A DNA stretch of 32,000 bases from Flavobacteriaceae bacterium (lineage in GTDB: Bacteria > Bacteroidota > Bacteroidia > Flavobacteriales > Flavobacteriaceae): NCBI GenBank assembly GCA_965224465.1, contig OZ245049.1, positions 3,060,001-3,092,000 of the forward strand. Direction: 5' to 3'. Each line of letters starts with the position of its first letter. Position 1 is the first letter of the stretch. Below the pieces are notes generated by a model. That model ran no database searches. It was not told where the DNA came from and saw only the letters and a list, made by a program, of their open reading frames with translations. This document shows, piece after piece, positions 1 through 31,090 of this stretch. Position numbers and translations under genes: made by a program.

Positions 1-11
1 GGATAGTATTA

Positions 12-93
12 GCTATCGTTCTATTTTTTAACAACGCTAGAACGTAAAACAAACTATTTATATCGGTCATTTTGGGTTTTAGTTGGTATTACT
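12..93 (+). repeat. R1 interspersed repeat, copy a
   Basis: gctatcgttctattttttaacaacgctagaacgtaaaacaaactatttatatcggtcattttgggttttagttggtattac. It recurs at 5330, 10362, 16590, 18081, 20252 and 23776. It contains a 7-bp hairpin, cgttcta (17-23) / tagaacg (38-44). The last ~13 codons and the stop of ORF 54..3338 lie inside it. Confidence 0.8.
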
Positions 94-5287: not shown

Positions 5288-5329
5288 AAGATTTAATAAT
5301 GGTTAATCACTGTTTGGATATGAGAACGT

Positions 5330-5420
5330 ATACTTATTACAATTTGAAATGATCCCTATAAATAGTTTCTTTTATGTTCTAGTGTTGTTAAAAAATAGAA
5401 CGATAGCTAAGGCCATCCAT
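5330..5420 (-). repeat. R1 interspersed repeat, copy b (inverted orientation)
   Basis: The reverse complement reads ...gctatcgttctattttttaacaacactagaacataaaagaaactatttatagggatcatttcaaattgtaataagta, which aligns along the full R1 core. Confidence 0.7.
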
Positions 5421-5508
5421 CTATTTTCTGCCTAGCTAAAACAAAAAATAATTCCATTTCTACAGTCACTCGGAAATGTATTTGAATTGTGTATTAGCAG
5501 AAAAAAAA

Positions 5509-10361: not shown

Positions 10362-10442
10362 TGCGATTGTTTTTCAACAACGATAAAACGTAAAAGAAAC
10401 TATTTATATCGGTTATTTTGGATTGTAGTTGGTATAAGTAAC
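10362..10442 (+). repeat. R1 interspersed repeat, copy c
   Basis: tgcgattgtttttcaacaacgataaaacgtaaaagaaactatttatatcggttattttggattgtagttggtataagtaac. Located just after the AraC stop. Confidence 0.7.
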
Positions 10443-13354: not shown

Positions 13355-14314
13355 ATGAATAAATTTGTTAAAAACATATGCTTTCTTATAGGCACAGCTG
13401 CCTTATTATTCAGTTGTGGAAGGGAAGAAATTACAGAACTTAAAGGGAAAGTGAAATTTGAAACCCTATCTGTTACTACAAAAATTGCAGGTAGAATTAC
13501 CGAGGTCTATGTTGTGGAAGGACAACAGGTAAAAAAAGGAGATACGCTGGCTATTATTGATATGCCAGAAGTTCAAGCAAAACTATCTCAAGTAGCAGGA
13601 GCTATTGAGGCGGCAGAAGCTCAACTTTTAATGGCTCACAATGGTGCTACAAACGAACAAATTGCCCAAATAGATGGGAAGTTAGATGCTGCAAAAGCAC
13701 AATTAACTTTTGCAAAAGAATCTTTTTCTCGTGTAGGAAATATGTTTAAAGACTCCTTAGTTTCTTCTCAGAAATACGACGAAGTACGGATGAAATTAGA
13801 CATGGCATCTGCCCAAGTAAAAGCGATACAAGCCAAACGAAAAGATGTATTAAATGGAACACGTAGAGAAATTATTTTACAGGCAAAAGGACAGTTAGCT
13901 CGTGCTAATGGGATGAGACAGGAAGTTTTAGTAGCTAAAGGTGAACAGTATGTAATTGCCCCAGTAGCCATGTCTATAGAAACAATTACTTTGCGTAAAG
14001 GAGAATTAGCAACGCCTGGTTATTCCCTGTTTAATGGTTATGAACTCAGTAGCCTGTATTTTAGGTTTACCGTTAGCGAATCTAAGGTTTATGACTATAA
14101 AATTGGACAAGAATTAACCGTAGTAAATCCCTATACTCACAAGGAGTTTCCTTCCAAGATAATTGCGATTAAACAACTAGCTCGCTATGCAGATATTACC
14201 AGTACTTCTCCAATGTATACATTAACAGAGGCCGTGTATGAGTTAAAACTTATCCCCTTGGAACAGATAAAAACTCAGGATATGTACCTTAATTCAACCG
14301 TTTTAATCAACTAG
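13355..14314 (+). CDS. HlyD family periplasmic adaptor (membrane fusion protein)
   Basis: Lipoyl-like hairpin (GRITEVYVVEGQQVKKGDTLAIID), a long alpha-helical hairpin and a C-terminal beta domain. Lies 20 nt after the TolC gene. Confidence 0.9.
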   Translation: MNKFVKNICFLIGTAALLFSCGREEITELKGKVKFETLSVTTKIAGRITEVYVVEGQQVKKGDTLAIIDMPEVQAKLSQVAGAIEAAEAQLLMAHNGATNEQIAQIDGKLDAAKAQLTFAKESFSRVGNMFKDSLVSSQKYDEVRMKLDMASAQVKAIQAKRKDVLNGTRREIILQAKGQLARANGMRQEVLVAKGEQYVIAPVAMSIETITLRKGELATPGYSLFNGYELSSLYFRFTVSESKVYDYKIGQELTVVNPYTHKEFPSKIIAIKQLARYADITSTSPMYTLTEAVYELKLIPLEQIKTQDMYLNSTVLIN

Positions 14315-14317
14315 ACG

Positions 14318-15493
14318 ATGAAACAATTTGTACAATTAGTAAAGGTTGAATTTAGTCGAATATTTTCAAATAATGTGCTCTTAGCCATCTTTTTTGGAGC
14401 ACCTGTATTATATGGACTACTGTTTGGGTATGTGTATAAACAAGCCAAAGTATTGGATTTGCCTATTGTTCTTATCGATCAAGATATGAGTCCTTTAAGT
14501 GATAAAATTACGGACGCTTTACATGATAATGAAACTATAAAAATTGTCGAATTTAAAGGAGGTATCGAAGACATTGCAACATTAATGCCTCGCAATGGGT
14601 ATACTGCAGTGCTCACAATTCCAAGTAGGTTTGAAGCGGATGTTTTACAAAAAAGATATCCAGAAATAAGAGTGGATTTAAATATGACCAATATTTTAAA
14701 TGCCAATTTTGCAAGTAAGAATATTTTGAAAATTTTAGGAACTCTAAAAGCGGGTATTGAAATTGAGGGTCTTAAAAAACAAGGCATGTCTCCACAGCAA
14801 GCCTTAAAATCGTATGAGCCGTTTAAAACCAATTTTAATAAATTGTACAATTCCTCGGGAAACTATACCGTTTTTATGATGCCTGGCTTGATGGGAGCTA
14901 TTATGCAGCAAATTATATTTTTGGGATTGGCATTGGTTTTTGCACGTGATTTTGAAGATGGGTATTTTACAACCTTAATTAAAAAAAGCAGATGGTCTCT
15001 GTATCATGTACTGCTTAAAATGACTCCCTTTATATTTTTAGTTACCATTGTGTGGGTGGCAGTTGCATGTTTTGTGCCTTATTTTAACATAGAGGTAGAT
15101 GTGTTTACAGGAGCCATGCTTGTACTGGTCGTTTTATTGTCACTAGCAGCTATTTTAATTGGAATGTTGTTCTCGATATTAATTCCAAATCAATTAAAAG
15201 CTACAGAATTATTAATGGTTATTTCTACCCCAGCATTTGTGTTGAGTGGGTTTACATGGCCTATGTCTGCAATGCCTGTATTTATTCAAAAGATAGCTCA
15301 AATTATTCCCCTTACTCATTTTTTAGAAGGGTTTAAAAAAACAGCTTTGTACGGAGGTGGAATCGCAGATATTGTGCCAGAGATACAATCTTTACTAATG
15401 ATTATACTTAGTAGCTTTATCTTTATTTTGGTAGCGTTGCAAACCAAAATTGAAATAACTCGGAAAAAGAATAAATTAACTTCCCCAAATTAA
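14318..15493 (+). CDS. ABC-2 type transporter permease (YhhJ-like)
   Basis: N-terminal TM helix, a ~150-aa periplasmic loop, then five C-terminal TM helices. Lies 3 nt after the HlyD gene. No ATPase gene is present in the operon. Confidence 0.85.
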   Translation: MKQFVQLVKVEFSRIFSNNVLLAIFFGAPVLYGLLFGYVYKQAKVLDLPIVLIDQDMSPLSDKITDALHDNETIKIVEFKGGIEDIATLMPRNGYTAVLTIPSRFEADVLQKRYPEIRVDLNMTNILNANFASKNILKILGTLKAGIEIEGLKKQGMSPQQALKSYEPFKTNFNKLYNSSGNYTVFMMPGLMGAIMQQIIFLGLALVFARDFEDGYFTTLIKKSRWSLYHVLLKMTPFIFLVTIVWVAVACFVPYFNIEVDVFTGAMLVLVVLLSLAAILIGMLFSILIPNQLKATELLMVISTPAFVLSGFTWPMSAMPVFIQKIAQIIPLTHFLEGFKKTALYGGGIADIVPEIQSLLMIILSSFIFILVALQTKIEITRKKNKLTSPN

Positions 15494-15504
15494 GAATAAA
15501 AATT

Positions 15505-15582
15505 AGGCGATTTAGCACTATACAGCGTTAATGTTCGAATTACTTTGTTAAATAGGAAACCCAATTTCTCGCTAAATCGCCT
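15505..15582. repeat. Perfect 12-bp inverted repeat with 54-nt spacer followed by a T-run (terminator-like)
   Basis: aggcgatttagc (15505-15516) pairs with gctaaatcgcct (15571-15582), followed by tttttc. Lies between convergent genes. Confidence 0.4.
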
Positions 15583-15802
15583 TTTTTCTTACCAACAAAG
15601 AACTAAATAATATCAAATACATCTCCAAGTGATTGTTTAGAAATGGAATTGGTATAAGTACATGAGTTCCTTGTTTCTGCGTTACAATATGATATTTTTT
15701 TTAATAAAAACCTGAGAACCTTTGTTTTATTTTGTTTTTTTGGTGGTATTCTTTCCGTAACCTTGTCAAATGTTATTTTTAATCGGTTTTTTGAGAATCA
15801 AT

Positions 15803-16589: not shown

Positions 16590-16670
16590 AGAATAGCTAG
16601 CACAGGTCAATACATAAACTATTAATATTGGATATTTTGGATTGTAATTGGTATTACTTAATTTAGAGTA
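16590..16670 (+). repeat. R1 interspersed repeat, copy d (5' part degenerate)
   Basis: ...gctagcacaggtcaatacataaactattaatattggatattttggattgtaattggtattactta aligns with the 3' two-thirds of R1. Confidence 0.6.
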
Positions 16671-17863: not shown

Positions 17864-18080
17864 GAATGTCGTTGCCTAATTGGCTGCCGAGTTTTATTTG
17901 CGCTATCGATTATGGTCAACTTGTGCCACTTTAAAAGATCAAGTTCAATTAAATTATTGCCCAATACACTTGCTCCGATGGACTTAAAAAAATCATCACG
18001 AAACATAAAAGAAGCAATCGTAATGAGAAAAATAAATAATTTTATGATTTGTTTAGGGGGAATATGGATGGATATCCTTT

Positions 18081-18344
18081 GCTATCGTTCTATTTTTTAA
18101 CAACGCTAGAACGTAAAACAACCTGTTTATATCGGTTATTTTGGATTTTAATTGGTGTTAGGTTATGCTTCTCCAAAAACCACAAAGATTTACACCAAGA
18201 CCATCGAGATAAACAATAAATAATTATTGGACCGCTTGAAAATTTAAAAAATTTGAATACTTTTAACAAAAAAACGACACATAACCCTAAACTATTATAG
18301 ACATAACGTCAATTTTTGGAAGTTTATGGATGATATACGGGTGT
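18081..18344 (+). repeat. R1-long: R1 core plus tyrosine-recombinase 3'-end remnant plus shared leader (cassette 1 left flank)
   Basis: R1 core 18081-18155. 18155-18223 then reads VLGYASPKTTKIYTKTIEINNK*, which is the ...LGHxSxKTTEIYTH... tail (including the catalytic Tyr) of a tyrosine recombinase. Stops lie immediately upstream, so there is no recombinase body. The shared block ends with gatatacgggtgt (18332-18344). Paralogous to 20252-20522. Confidence 0.8.
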
Positions 18345-18346
18345 AA

Positions 18347-19042
18347 TATGTTGCAAGACGAAAATTAGAATTAAATTATTTGGTAAAATTTTAAATAAGG
18401 AAATTGAGAAATTAAAAGATGGAGGTCGAATTGATGAAAACTTAATGCATAATCTTATTTTTCAACAGAGTAGTGATAACCCAGAACTTGGCGATTTATG
18501 GCTAATAATTGAAGATTTTATATATTTCAAAGGATTTTTTTAAAGAAAATTAGATAAAATTGAAATAGAAGGAGATTTGCTATTCAACAAAGAGTTCTCT
18601 ACAGAAGAACAAAGATTTCTCAACTCTTTGGGCGAAAAATGATTAACAAAACGACCAGGCATCTTAATTATTCCCTGACGAAGGAAAATGTATAATTATT
18701 AAATTTAAAGGACCTAACACAAATATTTCAGAACATTTAACGCAAATATATTTTTTTACAACTCTAATACGTAATTATACAAATGATAAATTCCAAGTAA
18801 CTACATTTTATGGCTATTTAATTTGAGAAAGTATGGAAGATAGAGACGTTAGAGGTCGATTTAGTAGGTTTGAACATTCTTATCATTTAGATTATTGGTT
18901 TCTACCATATGAAAATGTAAACAGTTTTGATAATCGATCAAATGGTTCAATTTACAAAGAAGTCTTAAAGTATAGTACAATATTAGAATGTGTTAAACTT
19001 AGAAATAGAATTTTCATTAATAAATTTGAAAACACAAAATAA
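18347..19042 (+). pseudogene. Decayed, internally deleted gene of the GHKL-ATPase/PD-(D/E)xK nuclease class (only a C-terminal nuclease-like region remains)
   Basis: Joining three frames gives LFGKILNKEIEKLKDGGRIDENLMHNLIFQQSSDNPELGDLWLIIEDFIYFKG / KLDKIEIEGDLLFNKEFSTEEQRFLNSLGEK / KRPGILIIPDEGKCIIIKFKGPNTNISEHLTQIYFF...FYGYLI / MEDRDVRG...RNRIFINKFENTK*. There are at least 4 frame disruptions (near 18541, 18640, 18676 and 18823). The motif order parallels the C-terminus of ORF 20544..22535. Confidence 0.6.
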
Positions 19043-19050
19043 GGAAATCA

Positions 19051-19893
19051 ATGGAAAACCAACAAAATAAACTAATCGTATTCCAAGATAAAAATATTCG
19101 TAGAATTTGGCACGAAAACGAATGGTTTTATGCTGCTGTTGATGTTATAGAAGTCCTCACAGAAAGTTCTAAACCAAGAGATTATTGGTATCGAGTAAAA
19201 AAAAGAGCCTCTGAAGATGAAAAAATGGAGTTGTCGACAATTTGTCGACAACTGAAGGTTCAATCGAAAGATGGTAAAAAATATAATACTGATTGTTCTA
19301 ATACTGAAGGTGTTTTTAGAATAATACAATCAATTCCATCACCCAAAGCAGAACCATTTAAAAGATGGTTAGCAAAAGTAGGAAAAGAAAGGTTAGATGA
19401 AATAGAAAATCCTGAGTTGGCTCAAGAGAGAATGAAAGAACTCTATGAACAAAAAGGATATCCTAAAGATTGGATTGATAAACGATTGAGAGGAATTGCC
19501 ATTCGTCAAAACCTAACAGATGAATGGAAGCAAAGAGGGATAAAAGAACATAGTGATTATGCTATTTTAACTGCTGAAATATCAAAAGCCACTTTTGGAA
19601 TGACACCAAGCGAATACAAAGAATATAAAAATATACCTATAAAATCTAAAATCAATTTACGTGATAATATGGACGATTTAGAATTGATTTTTTCAATGTT
19701 AGGAGAACGTGTTACTACTGAAATATCAAAAAAAGAAAAACCGAACACCTTTTTAAAAAATAAAAAAGTAGCACAAAGAGGAGGGAAAGTTGCAGGAAAT
19801 GCATTAAAAGAAACTGAAAAGGAATTAGGAAGAAATGTTATAACAGACAAAAATAATTTAGATAGCGATAACCAATTAAAATTAGACGAATAG
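19051..19893 (+). CDS. Bro-N domain-containing protein (phage antirepressor-like)
   Basis: N-terminal Bro-N pattern (VFQDKNIRRIWHENEWFYAAVDVIEVL ... EGVFRIIQSIPSPKAEPFKRWLAKV). The C-terminal region (YAILTAEISKATFGMTPSEYKEYK) is common in Bro-N/KilA-type mobile-element proteins. Confidence 0.8.
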   Translation: MENQQNKLIVFQDKNIRRIWHENEWFYAAVDVIEVLTESSKPRDYWYRVKKRASEDEKMELSTICRQLKVQSKDGKKYNTDCSNTEGVFRIIQSIPSPKAEPFKRWLAKVGKERLDEIENPELAQERMKELYEQKGYPKDWIDKRLRGIAIRQNLTDEWKQRGIKEHSDYAILTAEISKATFGMTPSEYKEYKNIPIKSKINLRDNMDDLELIFSMLGERVTTEISKKEKPNTFLKNKKVAQRGGKVAGNALKETEKELGRNVITDKNNLDSDNQLKLDE

Positions 19894-20004
19894 CCAACGA
19901 ATAAGCCATACATCTTTTTAATTCACTAAAGCCCTAGTCGCAAACCTAAAATTGCAAAAGAGTATGTCTTGCGACGCTATCAGCAGGATGTAAAGAATTA
20001 CCAG

Positions 20005-20262
20005 TTGCCAATAACTAAACGTTCGTGCGGTGCGCGCCCAGTACGAACATCCTGTTGACTATACCGGCTCAAAAGATGATACTATGAGGTTGGCGCAATT
20101 AATTAAGAGGCTATCAACAAAGACCTTAATAGGTACCACCTATTTTTAGGTCATTTTCTCTCACGCTCTTTTGTGGGGATATCTTTTTACTGTTTTTAGA
20201 TACGGATAAGTGTTGGTCAGCAGTATTTTGGCATGCGTTTCCCCTTTCGTGGCTACGTTTGT
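20005..20262 (+). repeat. R2 conserved ~260-bp element, copy 1 (candidate structured RNA / cassette right flank)
   Basis: Aligns end to end with 23408-23672. GC-rich hairpin 20021-20028/20041-20048, long-range helix 20053-20058/20114-20119, and an identical hairpin gacct..taggt-acc-accta..aggtc (20122-20152) followed by a U-rich tract. Confidence 0.75.
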
Positions 20263-20522
20263 TTTTTAACAACGCTAGTACGTAAACCAACCTATTTATA
20301 TCGGTTATTTTGGATTGTAATTGGTGTTAGGTTATGCTTCTCCAAAAACCACAGAGATTTACACCAAGTCCATCGAAATTAACAATAAAAAGATTAAAGG
20401 ACCGCTTGAAAACTTAAAAAATTTGAATACTTTTAACAAAAAAACAAATAATCACTCATTCTACTCTAGCTATGTTAGAAATAACAGCTACTCTAAGAGT
20501 TCTATAGTCGATATACGGGTGT
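20252..20522 (+). repeat. R1-long: R1 core plus tyrosine-recombinase 3'-end remnant plus shared leader (cassette 2 left flank)
   Basis: R1 core 20252-20325. 20324-20443 reads VLGYASPKTTEIYTKSIEINNKKIKGPLENLKNLNTFNKK (recombinase C-terminal tail), preceded by an in-frame TAA. It ends with gatatacgggtgt (20510-20522), 22 nt before the GHKL gene ATG. Track ORF 20321..20572 is this remnant, not a gene. Confidence 0.8.
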
Positions 20523-20543
20523 TGCCAGTAATACCAAAACCAA

Positions 20544-22535
20544 ATGCAGAAAGAAGCGAAAATCACATCTAAAGGAATTAAAAAAGTTTTAAAGAACTAT
20601 AATCCTGCTTCTTCTTTTGCCGAATATATTTGGAATGGTTTTGACGCTAAGGCAACCAAAATTGAGATAAACTACGATTCGAACGAATTAGGTAGAATTG
20701 GCTTTATTCAAATTAGAGATAACGGTACAGGAATTGACCTTGAAAACTTGGCATACAAGTTTGATAATTTCTATGAATCCGAAAAGTCCATTCAAATTCA
20801 ATCACCAAAACATTCTTCAATTCTACACGGTAAAAACGGAGTTGGTAGACTTACATTTTTCACTTTTGCTAACGATGCTAAATGGACTACACTTTATGAA
20901 AATAAAGGGATTAAAGGAGGAACAATAAGTATCTCAGCAGAAAACTTAAAAGTTTATGACAACAATTTTGTAAACACAGATTCAAAATTTACTGGAACGA
21001 CTGTTTACTTCACCAACTTGCTTATTGGCCTAGATACATTTCAACAAGAATTGACAAACTATATAAAGAAAGAGTTTTGTTGGTTTTTAGAATTAAACAA
21101 AGAGTATTCAATTCTAATAAATGGAATACCACTAGATTACTCTGATTTAGTTGCAGATAGAGATTCTTTTGAATTAGAAAACAGCAACAGTTTTTTCAAA
21201 ATTAAATATGTCCAATGGACTGAATTATTAAATAAGGAACACTCTAAGTTTTATTTTCAAGATTCTAGTGGAAAAGAAATATATAAAAACTTCACTACAC
21301 TTAATAAAAAAGGAGATTATTACTATCACAGTATTTACATTGAAAGTGATTTCTTTTCACATTTTGATTTTACAAAAAATGAAGAAAGCAATCAAATAAG
21401 TTTGTTTGCTAAAGCAAAATCATCTGTAGAATACAAATACTTAATTAGTAAACTTAACGAATACTTAAAAACCAAACGAAAGCCCTACTTAAGGGCATAT
21501 GCTGAAAGGCTGGTAATGGATTATGAATTAGATGGTATAATACCAACTTATAATAACTCTTGGGAGCAGATTAGAAGTAAAGAGTTAAAAGATACTATTA
21601 TTGGATTATATGAAGTCCAACCTAAAATATTCTCTAATTTAAACCTTGAACAAAAAAAGATATTCGTTCAATTTATAGACTTACTACTTGACTCTAACGA
21701 AAGAGAAAATATTTTCAAAATAATAGAAGGTGTTACCAAACTCGAACCAGAAGAAAGAGAGGACTTATCAAATATTTTACACAAAACAAGTTTAAACAGA
21801 GTCATAGATACTATTAAATTGATTGAAGATAGATACAAAACATATTATCAATTAAAAGAACTTGTGTTTAATGAAGAACTAGGAGCCAAAGAAATTCCTC
21901 ATTTACAAGATTTAATAGAAAATCATTATTGGCTTTTCGGTGAAGAATACCATTTGGTTACAGCTGCTGAACCAAAATTTGAAGAAGCATTAAAAAGATA
22001 TATTTATAAAACAACAGGTGAAATTAAAGACCAAAAAATAAACCATATCGACAAAAACAGAGAAATGGATATTTTTGCTTGCAGACAACATCAAAAAGAC
22101 GCAAAAATTGAGAATATCGTTCTTGAATTAAAACATCCTAAAATCCAACTAGGCGAAAAAGAGTACTCACAAGTAATGAAATATCTAAGTGTTATAAGTT
22201 CAAGACAAGAATTTAACGCACCAAATATGTCTTGGAAATTTTATCTCATAGGCAATAAATTTAATACTAGTCAATTTATTGAGAGACAGATTAAGACAAA
22301 CAAAAACCACGGAGAAGAGTCTTTAGTATACAATGATGAAGGTAGAATTAAGGTTTACGTTAAAACTTGGAGCGAAATATTTACTGAGTTTGAATTAAGA
22401 CATAATTTCCTTGATGAAAAATTAAAATTGGAAAGAGAGAAACTTTATGAATTAAGCAAAGACGCTGACGAAATTGTAGAAAAGGCATTAAATAACACAG
22501 CTATTAGCAAACCTGAAATTGTCGTTCCAAAATAG
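20544..22535 (+). CDS. GHKL (HATPase_c_3/MORC-like) ATPase fused to a C-terminal PD-(D/E)xK, Shedu/DUF4263-like nuclease domain
   Basis: N-box EYIWNGFDAKATKIEI, G1 IRDNGTGID, G2 HGKNGVGRLTFF. C-terminus: NHYWLFGEEYHLV ... REMDIFACRQ ... IVLELKHPK ... QVMKY (a D ... ExK arrangement). No signal peptide. Confidence 0.75.
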   Translation: MQKEAKITSKGIKKVLKNYNPASSFAEYIWNGFDAKATKIEINYDSNELGRIGFIQIRDNGTGIDLENLAYKFDNFYESEKSIQIQSPKHSSILHGKNGVGRLTFFTFANDAKWTTLYENKGIKGGTISISAENLKVYDNNFVNTDSKFTGTTVYFTNLLIGLDTFQQELTNYIKKEFCWFLELNKEYSILINGIPLDYSDLVADRDSFELENSNSFFKIKYVQWTELLNKEHSKFYFQDSSGKEIYKNFTTLNKKGDYYYHSIYIESDFFSHFDFTKNEESNQISLFAKAKSSVEYKYLISKLNEYLKTKRKPYLRAYAERLVMDYELDGIIPTYNNSWEQIRSKELKDTIIGLYEVQPKIFSNLNLEQKKIFVQFIDLLLDSNERENIFKIIEGVTKLEPEEREDLSNILHKTSLNRVIDTIKLIEDRYKTYYQLKELVFNEELGAKEIPHLQDLIENHYWLFGEEYHLVTAAEPKFEEALKRYIYKTTGEIKDQKINHIDKNREMDIFACRQHQKDAKIENIVLELKHPKIQLGEKEYSQVMKYLSVISSRQEFNAPNMSWKFYLIGNKFNTSQFIERQIKTNKNHGEESLVYNDEGRIKVYVKTWSEIFTEFELRHNFLDEKLKLEREKLYELSKDADEIVEKALNNTAISKPEIVVPK

Positions 22536-22565
22536 AAAGTTTTGTCCATCTTCCAATAGTATTCA

Positions 22566-23396
22566 ATGACCGAAAACAAATACACCAAAGAAACAGACAA
22601 AATTGTAAGTGATTTAATCACTAATCGGATTTTAAGACATACAATTCAGTTTTTCAAAAAAGGAGAGAAACGACTTGAACCATTTGGCTCAGGTGTTTTT
22701 GCGAAAATACATAATGACTATTTTATTTTAACTGCATCACACGTAGCAGATTTTTTTGAAAAAAATCCTAAAGAAGACTTACTAATTCGTGTAAATAAAA
22801 AATCTTATATCAATGTTCTTGGAGATATAAAGTATACTGATATTAAAAAAAGTAAGGGTGTCGATTTAGCTTATATCAAGGTTGACAAACAAATGATTGA
22901 GCCTTTATGCAACCCCTACATTCCTTTAGAAATAGATAAAATAAGAAGTCATCACAATGTATTTCACGCAATGAATTATTGTGTTTTGGGCTATCCTGAA
23001 ACGAATATCACTAAAGATGATGAGCCTTTAGATACTGGAGCGTCTTTTTATTTAACGAGCGCGAGTAAATATAATAGGTATCAAAAATATGGATATGATA
23101 AAAAAGACTATATCATAGTCGATATGCAAGGGAAAGGAAAAGATGTGAAAACGAATAAAAAATCAAAAATAAACACTCACTTTTATGGAATAAGTGGTTG
23201 CGGACTTTGGCTTTTGCTCATCTACAAAAATCCAATTACCGGCAAAGAAGAAATTGATTACCGATTAGTCGGAATAATGTCCGAATTTAAAAACTCAAAA
23301 TATTTTTGTTTAATAGCTAATAAAATTAAACTTTTGATTGAGGCTTTAAAAGTTATCGAAAAACATAAATTTAAAGAAATAAAAATAGAGTATTGA
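22566..23396 (+). CDS. Cytoplasmic trypsin-fold (S1-like) serine protease
   Basis: Catalytic triad in canonical order: His in FILTASHVADF, Asp in GVDLAYIKVD, Ser in YGISGCGLW. No signal peptide. Lies 30 nt downstream of the GHKL gene on the same strand. Confidence 0.75.
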   Translation: MTENKYTKETDKIVSDLITNRILRHTIQFFKKGEKRLEPFGSGVFAKIHNDYFILTASHVADFFEKNPKEDLLIRVNKKSYINVLGDIKYTDIKKSKGVDLAYIKVDKQMIEPLCNPYIPLEIDKIRSHHNVFHAMNYCVLGYPETNITKDDEPLDTGASFYLTSASKYNRYQKYGYDKKDYIIVDMQGKGKDVKTNKKSKINTHFYGISGCGLWLLLIYKNPITGKEEIDYRLVGIMSEFKNSKYFCLIANKIKLLIEALKVIEKHKFKEIKIEY

Positions 23397-23407
23397 AAGA
23401 GTACTAC

Positions 23408-23672
23408 TGGCAATAACTAAGTGTTCGTGCGGTGCGTAGCACCCAGCATGAACATCCTGTTGACTATACCGGCTCAAAAGATGATACTATGGGGATTGCG
23501 CGAAGTTTATTAAGAGGCTATCGACAAAGACCTTAATAGGTACCACCTATTTTTAGGTCATTTTCTCTCACGCTCTTTTGTGGGGATAGTTTTTTACTGT
23601 TTTTTGATACTGATTATTGTTGGTTAGTAGCGTTTAGGCATGCGTTTTCCATTACGTGGCTACGTTTATTTT
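23408..23672 (+). repeat. R2 conserved ~260-bp element, copy 2
   Basis: Starts 12 nt after the protease stop. Same helices as copy 1 (23423-23430/23446-23453 and 23458-23463/23521-23526). The substitutions relative to copy 1 preserve pairing through G-U wobbles on the + strand. Confidence 0.75.
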
Positions 23673-23775
23673 TTTTGTTCGGTTATTAGTACATGCTTTT
23701 ATTCGTTGCAACCAATAGGCAGGAGGTCCTCTTCCGTTAAGCAGATAGACTGTTTTGAGTTTCCCTGTCTTACAA

Positions 23776-23829
23776 TTGTTCTATTTTTTAACAACGCTAG
23801 AACGTAAAACAACCTATTTATATCGGTTA
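23776..23829 (+). repeat. R1 interspersed repeat, copy g (3'-truncated)
   Basis: ttgttctattttttaacaacgctagaacgtaaaacaacctatttatatcggttat, after which similarity stops. It marks the boundary to the PAAR locus. Confidence 0.7.
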
Positions 23830-24096
23830 TAAGATAAAGGTCAAATCGGTACGGTAATTAGATGAATAAAAATACAGGGAAATATAATCTGAAAACCACT
23901 ACTGCGTATAACTATTTTTTGTACTTTTGATTACTGCTTATAGATATATACGTCTTAATAATTAAAATAACCCAATGCTACATCGTAGGTTAAATGGATA
24001 TGCCTTCTTGTTTAGCACTGCTACTGTGAGAATATGGGATTATAAGTAATTTAACACACTCAAGCGGTAGAACATAACATAAAAAACAAATAAATT

Positions 24097-25640: not shown

Positions 25641-27640
25641 AGGTTTTTACAGACGATGCCGAAGTAGAAAATTTTATAAATAATAATAAGAAAGATGATG
25701 ATCGTAAAACATATGATGTAGCAAGCGGAAAAACATTAAAAAAGGCTAAGCCAAGTAACAATTTAAAATTAGGAAATAAAATAAAAATTAAACAACGTAA
25801 AGGTAATTATGTTGAAATAGGATTTGGAAAAATAATTGCTATTATTGAAAAGAAAAATCTAAAAGGGTACAAAAATCATAAAGGTTACCCGATAAAACTT
25901 GACGTTTTTGATGACGTTAATGTACTGTATCATGGGTATTTAAAAAAGAATAGTTTATTAAAATGGATAACAGATCAAACTTATGTTAAAAAAGTTGACA
26001 ATAAGTTTGTAACATGCCCTAAAAATGAAGAACCAGGTGATAATTATCCATACAGAAGGTTGTCATTTAATGTTGAAGGAAGTAGTTTATGGGTTGATTC
26101 ATTTGTGTTGCCAGCAGAAACAGCCAATGAAAAAGATGATTGGGTAGCATTAACCCAAGATGTAACTCAAGTATATGAAAAAGAACCAAAAGAAACCGAT
26201 AATGATATTGTGACTACAGAAGCGTTTTCTGTACGAAAAGTAACAGCTACTAAGGATAAAGATGGTATAGAATGGTTACAAGTAAAAGGTAAAAGAAAAC
26301 ATAAAGATAAACAAGGTTGGATAAAATTAAGTGAACTAACAGAGATAAACCCATATGAATGGAAAGGTGATACGTATGGATGGCAAATCCTTAATGATAC
26401 CGGATCACAATACTTTTATCAATTTGGAGATTCTGTAGAAAATACCGAGCCTCATAATTTTGTTACTACATTATGGGAGCAATTAAAGCAATACGATAGC
26501 GATAATGATAAAGTGTTAAGCGTATATGAGTTACAAAAAGCAAGAAGTTCAGAAGCAGGAGCTAAAATACTAAGTAAATTTATATGTAAGCATTTTAGTG
26601 AGTGGGATACTAATAGCAAAATAAGAGATTTTAAAACTGAGGTAGAAAATATTTATAAAAAAGGAATAGAGCAAGAAACAGTTAAAGCTGAGATAACAGC
26701 TTTAGAAGAGGCAAGAGATAATAAAATAGCACTCTTAGAAGATAAAATTAATAACCTTTGTTTTTGGGATAAAATCCAAACAGGAGATCTTGTACCTACC
26801 AGTAAACGTAAACAAGATTATATTGACAAACATAAACCTGTGCGTACAAGTATGTTACCGAAAGGCACAAGTAAAGAAGAGATTCGTTTAGCAAAAGAGT
26901 TTGATGACTTAGAGAAAGAAAGAACTCCGAGAGAGTTTCCTGCTGATTCTAATGTGTATCACTTCCACCCTATTGCATTTGTGGAACAGATGAAGATGAT
27001 ATGTGCTGCTACTACACCGCCTTGGATGGAGGTGGCTTTAGCAGAAGCTAAAAAAGCTAAGTTTATTAGAGAAACTTTGAGTCCAACATCTGAAATGGCT
27101 AATAAATACCATACTTATGTAGGGATACCTAAAGCTACTGGTTCTACAGCTTGGTGTGCCTCTTTTGTTAATTGGTGTTTAAACGAATCTGGTCAAAAAA
27201 GTGTAAAATCAGCGGGTTCACAAAGTATACTTTGGAATGAAGGAAAACTATTTAAGCGTATTAATGAACCGGTATATGGTTGTATTGTTTTATTAACTAA
27301 TTATGTTAAAAGTAATGGTAAACAAACTTCTAATGGACACGTTACTTTTTTATACGGAATTGATTCTAACGATAATTTAATATGCTTAGGAGGAAATCAA
27401 CGTGATACAATAAAGTTTTCTAGATATAAAAAAAAAGGAGTTTTAGCTACTTTTCGACAGTATCAAAAATCAGAAGGAGGTAAAGTTTTTGTGGAGCAAA
27501 AATTTAATGGCTTCTTTTTACCAATTGATTATTCTCCTACAAATAGTAAACAACCAGATGTTGTAAATATGAAAAAATTAAATAATGAACTGGCTGGTAA
27601 AGCTGTGAAATCTGATGGGGAAAATGAAAAAACTACTTAG
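25604..27640 (+). CDS. Polymorphic effector, C-terminal segment: end of the M23-like domain, EF-hand-like loop, and a TIGR02594/NlpC-P60-superfamily peptidoglycan amidase-like domain
   Basis: The frame is open from 25604, but the first canonical start is TTG at 26060. STVHLEVFTDD continues the M23-like domain. DSDNDKVLSVYE (26495-26530) fits an EF-hand loop. C-terminus: PPWMEVALAE...STAWCASFVNWCL...NGHVTFLYG...LGGNQRDTI, which is the TIGR02594 pattern. Confidence 0.7.
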   Translation: MEKQEQYSTVHLEVFTDDAEVENFINNNKKDDDRKTYDVASGKTLKKAKPSNNLKLGNKIKIKQRKGNYVEIGFGKIIAIIEKKNLKGYKNHKGYPIKLDVFDDVNVLYHGYLKKNSLLKWITDQTYVKKVDNKFVTCPKNEEPGDNYPYRRLSFNVEGSSLWVDSFVLPAETANEKDDWVALTQDVTQVYEKEPKETDNDIVTTEAFSVRKVTATKDKDGIEWLQVKGKRKHKDKQGWIKLSELTEINPYEWKGDTYGWQILNDTGSQYFYQFGDSVENTEPHNFVTTLWEQLKQYDSDNDKVLSVYELQKARSSEAGAKILSKFICKHFSEWDTNSKIRDFKTEVENIYKKGIEQETVKAEITALEEARDNKIALLEDKINNLCFWDKIQTGDLVPTSKRKQDYIDKHKPVRTSMLPKGTSKEEIRLAKEFDDLEKERTPREFPADSNVYHFHPIAFVEQMKMICAATTPPWMEVALAEAKKAKFIRETLSPTSEMANKYHTYVGIPKATGSTAWCASFVNWCLNESGQKSVKSAGSQSILWNEGKLFKRINEPVYGCIVLLTNYVKSNGKQTSNGHVTFLYGIDSNDNLICLGGNQRDTIKFSRYKKKGVLATFRQYQKSEGGKVFVEQKFNGFFLPIDYSPTNSKQPDVVNMKKLNNELAGKAVKSDGENEKTT

Positions 27641-29040: not shown

Positions 29041-30160
29041 ATTCAACTTATAAACGCAACTTTTTGGTTAAACAATAATTGATTCATTACAAATATAGGG
29101 TTTTGATATGAAAACCTTTTCCTAGGCCTTCTATTTAATTTTCCTTCCACCTGTTTTATCATCTGCTTAGTTAATATCGAAAAGTCACTTCCTTTAGGGA
29201 AATATTGCCGAATAAGCCCATTTAAATTTTCATTAGATCCTCTTTCCCATGAATGGTAAGGATGTGCAAAATAATAATCGATTCCTAAAAATTCAGCTAC
29301 TTTTTTATGTCCTGCAAACTCTTTTCCGTTATCAGCTGTTATAGTGTTTATATACGGTATCCAATCTTCTAAAAGCTCATTAATAGCAGCTGTTACAACA
29401 GAAGATTCTTTAGATGCTATTTTTTTCATCTTTAGCATCCCAGAAGCCCTGTCATTGATTGTAAGAATGGCTTGATGATGATTTTTTCCAATTATTAAAT
29501 CCACTTCTAAATCTCCAAAACGTTCTCTTTTCTCCACTATATCTGGTCGTTTTTCAATACTAATTCGATCTTTAATAATACCACGTGAGTCCTTGAATGC
29601 CCCTCGTTTCCTGTACTTCCTTCCTTGTCTTCTTAAATGAGTATAGAGTGTGCCTTTATGCTTCTTATCTTGCCAGATATGCTGATAAATACGTTCTACT
29701 GAAACAACTTCTTTTCCTTGCTTAGTAAGTATTCCAACCACTTGTTCTGGACTATAATCATCACGTAACAGCTTTTCAACCTCGCTTCTTATCTTCTCAG
29801 TAAACCTAATGTGCTTTCGCTTTTTCTTATGTCTATCCTTCCACTTTCTATGTGCTAATTCGTATTCATAGGAGCCGCTACGAGCATCGCAATTACGTTT
29901 GCATTCTCTACTTATAGTGCTTTTATGTTTCCCTATAGCCAAGGCTATTTTGGACTTAGAATACCCCTGTGATAACATACAGGTAATTGTGTATCTTTGT
30001 TCTTTGGTTAAATGTGCCATACTACTTCTTTTTCAGAGACTTGAGGGCGTAAGGTAACTATTCCATCAAAACATGAAGGAGAGGTGACTCTCTTTCTGTT
30101 TTGAAAAATAAACCTTAGAAACTCTCAAATCTAAGAAGTTGCATTTACTACTTGAATTTA
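29038..30160 (-). mobile_element. IS30-family insertion sequence (~1.12 kb)
   Basis: Terminal inverted repeats: aattcaacttataaacgcaactt (29040-29062) against the reverse complement of aagttgcatttactacttgaatt (30136-30158), about 19/23 matches. A single transposase ORF lies inside. The exact ends and the target-site duplication are not resolved. Confidence 0.8.
29043..30020 (-). CDS. IS30 family transposase
   Basis: N-terminal HTH (GYSKSKIALAIGKHKSTISRECKRN). DDE region (LEVDLIIG ... ITADNGKEF ... HSWERGSNENLNGLIRQYFPK). Confidence 0.95.
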   Translation of the reverse strand: MAHLTKEQRYTITCMLSQGYSKSKIALAIGKHKSTISRECKRNCDARSGSYEYELAHRKWKDRHKKKRKHIRFTEKIRSEVEKLLRDDYSPEQVVGILTKQGKEVVSVERIYQHIWQDKKHKGTLYTHLRRQGRKYRKRGAFKDSRGIIKDRISIEKRPDIVEKRERFGDLEVDLIIGKNHHQAILTINDRASGMLKMKKIASKESSVVTAAINELLEDWIPYINTITADNGKEFAGHKKVAEFLGIDYYFAHPYHSWERGSNENLNGLIRQYFPKGSDFSILTKQMIKQVEGKLNRRPRKRFSYQNPIFVMNQLLFNQKVAFIS

Positions 30161-30466: not shown

Positions 30467-31090
30467 GTGTATCATTTTCACCCGATTGCATTTGTGGAAC
30501 AGATGAAGTTGATTGCTGGGGAACTTGATATTAAATCTGGTATTGAGTGGTTAGACTCTATTGCTATAAATCAGGAAAAAGCAGGGGTAAAATCTAATTA
30601 TAAGGTTTTATATGTTCAAGAAGGGCCTAAATTGAGAACGTCAGATTCAGATGAAGCCTTAAAATATTCCGATTGTTCAGAATTAGTCTGTAGATTTTTA
30701 AATAAAATAGGGTGGAGTAAAAAAGTTAAACACTTAAACACTTCTGCTTTGTATTCATTTGCGCAGAAAAACCCAAATTTATTAGAAAAACATGACAAAG
30801 ATTATGTTCCTCAAAAAGGAGGTATTTTTCTTTGGGCTAACAAAGCAGGTTCAAATGGTCATACGGGAATTGTTGTAGATTATGACAGTAAAATTGATGT
30901 TGTAACTACAATTGAAGCTATTAATTTTAAAGAAAGACCTTATGGTGCTACAAGTAGTATCAAATTACAAGGAGTTGTTAAAGCTAAGTGGAAAAGAAAA
31001 TCAAGTCACTTAATGAGTCATCCATTAATAACTACTAGATATGAAGCACACCCTTGTAGATTCTATTCTCCTAAAAAATCAGATAAATAA
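30467..31090 (+). CDS. Orphan toxin module: NlpC/P60- or CHAP-like cysteine peptidase domain preceded by the conserved pre-toxin junction
   Basis: Begins NVYHFHPIAFVEQMK, which is 47/50 nt identical to 26946-26995 of the main effector. Nucleophile-like YSDCSELVCRFL and GSNGHTGIVVDY. No N-terminal delivery region. A degenerate, stop-containing homology block (30388-30445) lies upstream. Confidence 0.65.
   Translation: MYHFHPIAFVEQMKLIAGELDIKSGIEWLDSIAINQEKAGVKSNYKVLYVQEGPKLRTSDSDEALKYSDCSELVCRFLNKIGWSKKVKHLNTSALYSFAQKNPNLLEKHDKDYVPQKGGIFLWANKAGSNGHTGIVVDYDSKIDVVTTIEAINFKERPYGATSSIKLQGVVKAKWKRKSSHLMSHPLITTRYEAHPCRFYSPKKSDK

Follow-up and report, generated by a model that had tools for sequence, protein, structure and literature searches.

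How did two dissimilar sets of genes come to stand in tandem between nearly the same flanks, each set behind a fragment of a recombinase gene, where no recombinase is encoded? The question is raised by a 32-kb stretch of a Flavobacteriaceae genome (the window, whose numbering is used for all positions), in which the locus in question occupies 18.07-23.83 kb. The original prediction for this DNA described two cassettes between repeats and offered two explanations, accretion of integrative elements and exchange of cargo between conserved flanks. We consider it likely that the locus is instead an integrase-less array, made of two decapitated platforms with one cassette each, and that it belongs to an integron-like system frequent among marine Flavobacteriaceae. 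The cassettes are probably serviced in trans by a recombinase encoded elsewhere in the genome.

Organization of the locus

Repeat finding in the window confirmed the predicted arrangement. The core of one repeat, R1, occurs three times (18079-18139, 20248-20308 and 23770-23830; 77-96% identity), a second repeat, R2, twice (20006-20267 and 23408-23674; 88-90% identity), and a coding remnant, VLGYASPKTT(K/E)IYTK..., also twice (about 18157-18297 and 20326-20452). Both of the leaders that follow the remnants terminate in GATATACGGGTG. The flanks had been called identical; they are homologous but only similar, the left and right flanks (~250 nt each) being 88-94% identical between the units and the final ~70 nt of the leaders being of two types, A and B. 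The parts of the locus are listed below, where L-numbers denote contigs or loci of relatives and P0103 is an intact recombinase protein.

18066..18156, + strand: R1a, a copy of a repeat resembling a miniature inverted-repeat transposable element (MITE), joined at its right end to the remnant; 92% to L013 9640-9727
18157..18297, + strand: recombinase 3'-end remnant 1, residues ~331-378, frame-shifted, LGH changed to LGY; tblastn with P0103
18298..18343, + strand: leader of type A with attI-like site GATATACGGGTG|, presumed crossover 18343|18344; 82% to the leader of the intact gene in L013
18344..20054, + strand: cassette 1, degenerate; open reading frame (ORF) fragments, Bro-N gene, 80-nt element, compact attC-like site
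20055..20257, + strand: R2a right arm, non-coding, starting TTGACTATACC and ending GGCTACG|; 88% to 23460-23664
20258..20325, + strand: R1b, left-truncated, joining R2a within a T-run; repeat comparison
20326..20452, + strand: recombinase 3'-end remnant 2, residues 331-373, LGY; tblastn with P0103, 88% over 43 aa
20453..20521, + strand: leader of type B with attI-like site GATATACGGGTG|, crossover 20521|20522; 90% to L013 7270-7431
20522..23459, + strand: cassette 2; GHKL ATPase, trypsin-like protein, compact attC-like site
23460..23664, + strand: R2b right arm; repeat comparison and L013
23665..23774, + strand: spacer, the conserved right flank of the platform; 89% to L013 8804-8896
23775..23830, + strand: R1c, right end truncated; same spacer-R1 junction in L013

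Further matches to relatives were found for several of these parts: the R2a right arm is 87% identical to L013 8540-8803, the type B leader also resembles L002, and the first 43 nt of the spacer also close the array in L003 (7886-7927). R1c is the third, truncated R1 that had been noted near the PAAR locus; in L013, the same spacer-R1 junction leads into a zinc-ribbon gene and the intact recombinase gene.

An intact recombinase in the same genome

When all 32 kb were searched with P0103 by tblastn, no recombinase body was detected, in agreement with the original prediction. The only matches were to residues 331-378, twice, at 86-96% identity (for remnant 1, 86% over residues 331-352 and 96% over 354-378), indicating that the short ORFs indeed derive from the very 3' terminus of a tyrosine recombinase gene. 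Both platforms in the window lack everything between the upstream R1 and recombinase codon ~331. The two remnants share the R1|GTTAGG junction and a change of the catalytic-motif His to Tyr in the conserved LGH motif (LGYAS), suggesting that the part comprising R1 and remnant has a single origin.

The 41-aa tail of the remnant matched only short ORFs in relatives, one of which (L005) led to a large Flavobacteriaceae family of ~368-aa tyrosine recombinases (PF13495 and PF00589). At E ≤ 1e-60 this family exceeds 3,000 sequence clusters, with members in Algibacter, Winogradskyella, Galbibacter, Aureibaculum, Polaribacter and other genera. P0103, a Xer/IntI-like tyrosine recombinase of 378 aa, has a C-terminus (...NMLGHASPKTTEIYTKTIEINNKKIKGPLENLKNLNTFNKK) that equals the tail in the window exactly, and an exact-sequence index placed it on the same 5,241,564-bp contig as all cargo proteins of the window. 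It is encoded in L013, which comes from the same sample as L001, a near-identical copy of the window. The intact recombinase with a matching 3' end that had been sought is thus present in the same genome. A scan of a genome collection with the remnant pattern returned the L002 contig only.

The closest kin of the recombinase are archaeal XerA and IntI4. In an alignment with VchIntIA (2a3v), nothing in P0103 corresponds to chain residues 207-245, and the protein scored 180 bits against TIGR02249 (cut-off 265) and 129 against PRK15417 (cut-off 435). It also has an extra N-terminal region of ~95 aa. A phage integrase was rejected as its identity, because viral contigs hold only relatives that are 38-40% identical.

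Intact platforms in relatives

The L013 locus begins with CbiA (- strand), a partial remnant, a type B leader, a 359-aa gene, R2, the spacer and R1. It continues with a 150-aa zinc-ribbon gene (- strand), R1, 210 nt, the recombinase gene and a type A leader ending ...GATATACGGGTG|TTGGCAAC, followed by a CYTH gene, a site, a 656-aa GHKL gene, an intron-split site and further cargo. The recombinase start is preceded by R1 at ~210 nt, and the insertion site lies ~50 nt 3' of the stop codon. Platform units stand in tandem in L013 also.

Six platforms, from at least five genera, share a divergent zinc-ribbon gene, the recombinase gene, an attI-like site and co-oriented cassettes, most of which close with a site of hairpin type (...CG|TT), usually long and imperfect. 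The platforms compared were those of Galbibacter (L007), Algibacter (L010), Winogradskyella (L032) and metagenomic relatives (L014 and L016-19), among which the zinc-ribbon partner gene is conserved at 58-87% identity. The attI-like motif TATACRRGTG|TT lies 47-71 nt past the recombinase stop in L007, L010, L013, L014, L016 and L032; it is also found behind both stubs of the window, and the first cassette starts at its G|TT. The system therefore has a fixed insertion site adjoining the recombinase gene, as an integron does. Cargo genes in the arrays of relatives are co-oriented, with repeated sites between them, and include restriction-modification, toxin-antitoxin and mer genes, SIR2 with DUF87 (SIR2-HerA-like) and AAA15 with HNH.

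The original prediction had proposed a comparison of syntenic loci. At the CbiA locus, L013 carries the intact platform with a degenerate unit upstream, L014 a recombinase gene disrupted by R1, and L003 and L004 a recombinase gene deleted to its MLGH... tail, with six different genes in the array. At the YebC locus, the cargo is DUF4844 in L016 and SIR2 with DUF87 in W. forsetii (L032). The comparison thus revealed differing fill at CbiA (L003, L013 and L014) and at YebC (L016 and L032), but not at the window locus itself, which is unvaried in L001. The recombinase gene is intact in L013, disrupted by the MITE-like repeat in L014 and L002, and deleted in L003 and the window. A second sample pair (L016 with L003, L019 with L004) likewise combined an intact platform with an integrase-less array.

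Cassettes and their movement

Cassette 2 carries genes for a GHKL ATPase (20544-22535, 663 aa) and a weakly trypsin-like protein (22566-23396, 276 aa), followed by a compact attC-like site (23405-23459) that consists of TACTGGCAA, a hairpin and then CCTG|. Its start, TTGCCAGTA (20522-20530), is the exact reverse complement, 9/9, of TACTGGCAA (23405-23413). Cassette 1 holds frame-shifted ORF fragments (18346-19042), a Bro-N gene (19051-19893), an 80-nt conserved element (19892-19970) and a compact attC-like site (20001-20054). Its start, TAATATGTTGCAAG, complements the start of R2a, CCAGTTGCCAA, only in part. The Bro-N protein was recognized by Pfam (1e-14) and as the PADLOC candidate PDC-S13 (2e-116). 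The first gene of each cassette had been called nuclease-class; this stands only as a weak match in the GHKL protein (HSDR_N_2, E 0.0017), and no family was detected for the frame-shifted wreck that opens cassette 1, nor was homology found between that wreck and the cassette 2 proteins.

Cassette 2 recurs at 91.8% nucleotide identity in eight contigs of relatives (L020-L027; the index lists 63 blocks), where it has four different left and three different right neighbours. Homology of these contigs to the window begins exactly at G20521|T20522. The suggestion that the cargo units are mobile was thus borne out, with cassette 2 in four left contexts and the switch at G|TT. The copies in L020-L027 carry a third, paralogous protease-like gene, and the window's TACTGG... 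persists there as an intergenic relic, suggesting a fused cassette.

The relation between the two ends of a cassette, a hallmark in integrons, is general. In 12 of 14 cassettes, the start (9 nt after G|) is the reverse complement of the start of the cassette's own closing site, exactly in 10 and with one mismatch in 2, and L032 supplies two further exact cases. In 11 of the 12, the distance from this complement to the next crossover is 42-197 nt; in the twelfth, cassette 2 of L013, it is 1,985 nt because a ~1.8-kb group II intron splits the site. The cassette-start sequences differ while the complementarity is kept, suggesting that circular intermediates recombined at G|TT and left this footprint. 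Present in different arrays, joined at G|TT and complementary between start and site, these units behave as mobile cassettes.

These data bear on the proposal that the locus is a hotspot at which cargo is swapped by homologous recombination between conserved flanks, with no site-specific step. Flanks of ~250 nt that are 88-94% identical would suit such swapping, and the left parts of the units, unlike the leaders, look homogenised, sharing both the junction and the His-to-Tyr change, which suggests gene conversion. However, the same cassette lies in L020-L027 without these flanks, with base-exact G|TT junctions, and covariation of start with closing site across 12 or more cassettes is not predicted by homologous exchange. 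We regard this proposal as very unlikely, and favor site-specific capture of the cassettes.

The GHKL ATPase gene also belongs to a three-gene module (for example, L020 302-4023) that encodes the 663-aa ATPase and two paralogous trypsin-like proteins of 276 and 281 aa. A copy at least 90% identical is present in Cellulophaga lytica. The module is a candidate defence system without a PADLOC model, and moves as a cassette.

attC-like sites and R2

The sites between cassettes begin ...(G)TTGSCAAC or ...CAAC and end ...A(A/C)(A/C)CG|TT(A/G)..., often GTTAGG(C/T), and their lengths range from 46 to ~195 nt. We folded 12 attC-like sites from relatives as single-stranded DNA, in the strand as written. 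End-to-end pairing was found in 8 of them, 7 with at least 14 such pairs, and z ranged from -0.5 to -6.4 across the 12.

R2 of the window is composite: a compact attC-like site (first ~55 nt) is followed by a conserved 205-nt arm starting TTGACTATACC, then by the spacer. The compact part has the layout of L016 12044-12092 and L014 12599-12653, that is, a start complementary to the cassette start, a hairpin and CCTG|TT. Folded as single-stranded DNA, the compact hairpin gave z values of -2.8 in R2b and -0.8 in R2a. The spacer after R2 also ends arrays in L013 and L003, and the arm and spacer together may represent the original right side of the platform.

R2 was also considered as a known RNA and rejected, since Rfam gave no match to it, either at the gathering score or at E ≤ 5; no Rfam family was found anywhere in the window. 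A two-sequence consensus fold of R2 was uninformative, and pattern scans of metagenome collections with R2 and R1 gave 0 matches.

One attC-like site of L013 contains a group II intron (~13940-15760, - strand) with reverse transcriptase and maturase (Rfam group-II-D1D4-3, 126 bits), opposite to the cassette orientation. It resembles the attC-targeting group IIC introns of integrons.

The ~80-nt element of cassette 1 (GCCAACGC...AGCCATACA...AAAAGAGTATGTCT.GCCAACGC) recurs inside cassettes of different genera, where it either precedes ORFs or separates an ORF from its attC-like site. It may act as a promoter or terminator, or encode an RNA, that travels with the cassette. Its copies are:

window 19892-19970
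L007 13494-13572
L032 14725-14810 and 11225-11320
L013 15960-16030

R1 is a dispersed repeat

R1 occurs seven times in the window, on both strands and between unrelated housekeeping genes. The copies outside the locus are:

1..92, + strand: R1 copy; 92.5% to R1a
5329..5462, - strand: R1 copy, near full length, inverted; repeat comparison
10364..10437, + strand: R1 copy; repeat comparison
16616..16657, + strand: partial R1, right end only, upstream of the DUF418 gene; repeat comparison

Seven copies in 32 kb imply a very high genomic copy number. R1 is non-coding and ~80-170 nt long. The full form of ~170 nt has ends resembling terminal inverted repeats of 11-14 bp (..TCAAATAC.. / ..GTATTTGA..) in L002, L014 and the window copy at 5329-5462. 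The hairpin contained in R1a, CGTTCTA-N14-TAGAACG, is conserved, and its L002 variant (GTCGTTTT..AAAACGAC) is a compensatory change. A target-site duplication was not clear in the copies compared, and no cognate transposase was identified. In L002 (353-517) and L014 (10928-11090), an inverted R1 with 11-bp terminal inverted repeats interrupts the recombinase gene at the same position, ...TVH|TLRH..., in the catalytic Arg-His codons, with a loss of ~10 nt. R1 is absent from the platforms of other genera (L016, L007 and L010), and a scan of viral contigs for R1 gave 0 matches. Its seven dispersed copies on both strands rule R1 out as an attachment site.

We also considered R1 and the leader as an inverted-repeat pair around the recombinase gene. 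Alignment scores fell within those of shuffles for all platforms and both window units, and the unit from R1 to leader folds no better than shuffles.

The dispersal of R1 is central to the other proposal, tandem accretion, by which integrative elements would have entered at R1 or at the recombinase 3' end, each bringing a replacement copy of that end, with the R1 copies as duplicated attachment sites. Two units bracketed by three direct R1 copies have this appearance, and in L013 R1 likewise brackets the zinc-ribbon gene and precedes the recombinase gene, with platform units in tandem. However, R1 is scattered seven-fold among unrelated housekeeping genes on both strands, has ends like terminal inverted repeats, is inserted inverted into the recombinase genes of L002 and L014, and is missing from platforms of other genera. 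The remnant follows R1 and is not split by it, and the cargo boundary is G|TT, not R1. Nor does a replacement copy of the target's 3' end agree with the intact platform, where the insertion site lies 3' of the recombinase stop and R1 ~210 nt upstream of its start. We conclude that tandem accretion is highly improbable, and that the flanking direct repeats had been misread as duplicated attachment sites or target ends: R1 is a dispersed repeat and the remnant a deletion stub. Integration linked to a tRNA gene within the window was also rejected, as no tRNA gene was found in the 32 kb.

Proposed origin of the array

The attI-like site lies just 3' of the recombinase gene, so a truncated platform keeps the 3' end of that gene. 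To judge from their sequences, the remnants are what an internal deletion left of the platform's own gene, not target duplications. In the pathway that we propose for the decapitated platforms, cassettes would arrive as circles and recombine at G|TT, between an attI-like and an attC-like site. The enzyme would be a recombinase of the P0103-type family, now acting in trans from the platform that this genome carries at its CbiA locus. The predicted circle junction is ...CATGAACATCCTG|TTGCCAGTAATACC, and that predicted for cassette 2 is ...GCACCCAGCATGAACATCCTG|TTGCCAGTAATACCAAAACC.

The recombinase body would have been lost once, by recombination involving R1 or a core-like GTTAGG within the gene. 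The window junction and an independent truncation in L003 both lie at AATATG|TTAGG, inside the N-M-L-G-H codons, which resembles the core of the system. Recombination at a secondary site, or deletion between two R1 copies, are both possible routes for this loss. The stub would then have been duplicated or converted.

Points against the proposed array and the possibility of a relic

Several observations weigh against our interpretation. Cassette 1 and its attI-side junction are degenerate, and unit 1 may be a fossil. The 5' compact hairpin of R2 is significant in only 2 of 5 copies, and R2 taken whole as one long attC hairpin was rejected, with z of -0.1 to -1.9 (-1.6 and -1.9 for the two window copies) and no terminal stem. 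Our interpretation leaves the 205-nt arm of R2 unexplained, and does not account for tandem stubs that share the R1|remnant junction while their leaders differ. The ~40-aa insertion on which attC recognition by integron integrases depends is absent from the recombinase, whose role in cassette movement is suggested by association only. Relatives bearing R1 and R2 are very rare in the collections, and no empty or alternative state of the window locus was seen in the comparison with L001, which is 99.8% identical.

These points raise the alternative that the array was built in an integron-like manner and is now a decaying relic, no longer serviced in trans. The frame-shifted gene and damaged attI junction of cassette 1, the mutations in both stubs, the metagenomic near-duplicate L001 without a cargo difference and the poor folding of R2 would all fit a relic. 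Against this, the ORFs and the attI-like motif of cassette 2 are intact, its start is complementary to the start of R2b at 9/9 positions, and an intact recombinase is present in the genome. On balance we consider an inactive fossil unlikely, and retain the reading that the cassettes are probably serviced in trans.

Relation to integrons and other arrays

Integrons are the standard example of site-specific gene capture. Their recombination uses the folded bottom strand of attC, whose imperfect inverted repeats have AAC...GTT ends, and an insertion of ~35-40 aa in the catalytic fold, specific to IntI, is thought essential for attC recognition. The Flavobacteriaceae system resembles integrons in having a Xer/IntI-branch tyrosine recombinase whose gene adjoins a fixed insertion site; co-oriented cassettes of one or more ORFs with an imperfect-palindrome site, the same cassette occurring in different arrays; a G|TT crossover, often GTTAGG(C/T), which corresponds to the integron core GTTRRRY; complementarity between the start of a cassette and that of its own site; a group II intron in one site; and cargo rich in defence, toxin-antitoxin and restriction-modification genes. 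The nearest types are sedentary chromosomal integrons, whose attC sites are homogeneous, and the 'inverted' group, in which the integrase is co-oriented with the array.

In contrast to integron integrases, the recombinase lacks the ~40-aa IntI-specific insertion, stays below the TIGR02249 and PRK15417 cut-offs and has the extra ~95-aa N-terminus; P0103 is therefore not an integron integrase by definition, despite the integron-like behavior of the system. Other differences are the conserved divergent zinc-ribbon partner gene, site lengths that vary from 46 to ~195 nt, and the position of the attI-like site 3' of the recombinase stop, so that truncation leaves 3'-end stubs. Surveys with IntegronFinder have recorded almost no integrons in Bacteroidetes.

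With two attC-like R2 sites and no recombinase body in 32 kb, the locus would count as a cluster of attC sites lacking integron integrases (CALIN), defined by at least two attC sites with no integrase nearby. As in a CALIN, an intact recombinase elsewhere could act in trans on cassettes that carry recombination sites. Unlike in a CALIN, each cassette here stands behind its own attI-like site and stub, as two decapitated platforms and not as a detached run of cassettes.

rAID-1 clusters of gut Bacteroidales are described as recombinase-headed arrays with integron-like intergenic repeats (bioRxiv 10.1101/471110; PMC12247911). Their definition requires, at the 5' end, a recombinase with no less than 44% identity to B. 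fragilis BF9343_RS08045 (10.1101/471110), and the rAID recombinase is reported to have close homologues only in Bacteroidales (bioRxiv 10.1101/471110; PMC12247911). Their cargo consists of orphan immunity genes of the type VI secretion system, of 100-300 codons, whereas the cargo here is defence-like, restriction-modification, toxin-antitoxin and mer; the window cassettes encode Bro-N/PDC-S13 and a GHKL protein with a protease, and do not form an orphan-immunity-gene array. Compared by description only, rAID-1 clusters may be relatives of the Flavobacteriaceae system. Tycheposons and tandem integrative islands likewise have tandem cargo units, repeats with a partial gene copy and some units without a recombinase of their own; here, by contrast, the partial gene is the recombinase itself, not an integration target, and the bracketing R1 is a dispersed MITE-like repeat. 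A literature search for the Flavobacteria system found no description of it, an absence that is not proof of novelty.

A broader reading, which we put forward tentatively as possible though short of probable, is that Flavobacteriaceae and some other Bacteroidota carry a distinct, widespread class of integron with a Xer-like recombinase that lacks the IntI domain. Such a system would work with the zinc-ribbon partner, attC-like hairpins and a G|TT crossover, and would stock arrays with anti-phage and accessory cassettes. Integrase-less arrays would still be serviced in trans, and the class would represent a convergent or deep-branching second route to gene capture.

The recombinase family shows diagnostic footprints of integron-type cassettes and lacks the domain thought essential for attC recognition. 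If active, the system would account for the spread of GHKL-protease, SIR2-HerA-like, restriction-modification and toxin-antitoxin genes among marine Flavobacteriaceae, would offer a natural experiment on the recognition of folded DNA by tyrosine recombinases, and may supply a mechanism that underlies rAID arrays in gut Bacteroidales. In the annotation of these genomes, short 'recombinase C-terminus' ORFs mark decapitated capture platforms.

Neighboring regions

To the left of the locus, a short conserved stretch (..TATTTG..CGATTATGGTC.ACTT.TGCCACTT) is shared by the window (17893-17933) and L002 (4612-4654); it follows the DUF418 gene in the window and R2 in L002. Together with the partial R1 at 16616, this sequence hints that the array may once have reached further left.

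To the right, the window (24582 onward) and the otherwise 99.8%-identical L001 (13545 onward) diverge completely just past the PAAR gene: L001 encodes one 1264-aa CHAP effector, and the window has ORFs of 356 and 526 aa. Judged by sequence, the divergence looks like a polymorphic-toxin swap. Further downstream, a gene for an IS30-like transposase (HTH_38 and rve; 29043-30020, - strand) lies between two CHAP-domain genes (26060-27640 and 30467-31090) that share the motif YHFHPIAFVEQMK. The CHAP genes may be duplicated or orphan effector C-terminal modules, and the adjacent small lipoprotein-like genes may encode immunity proteins.

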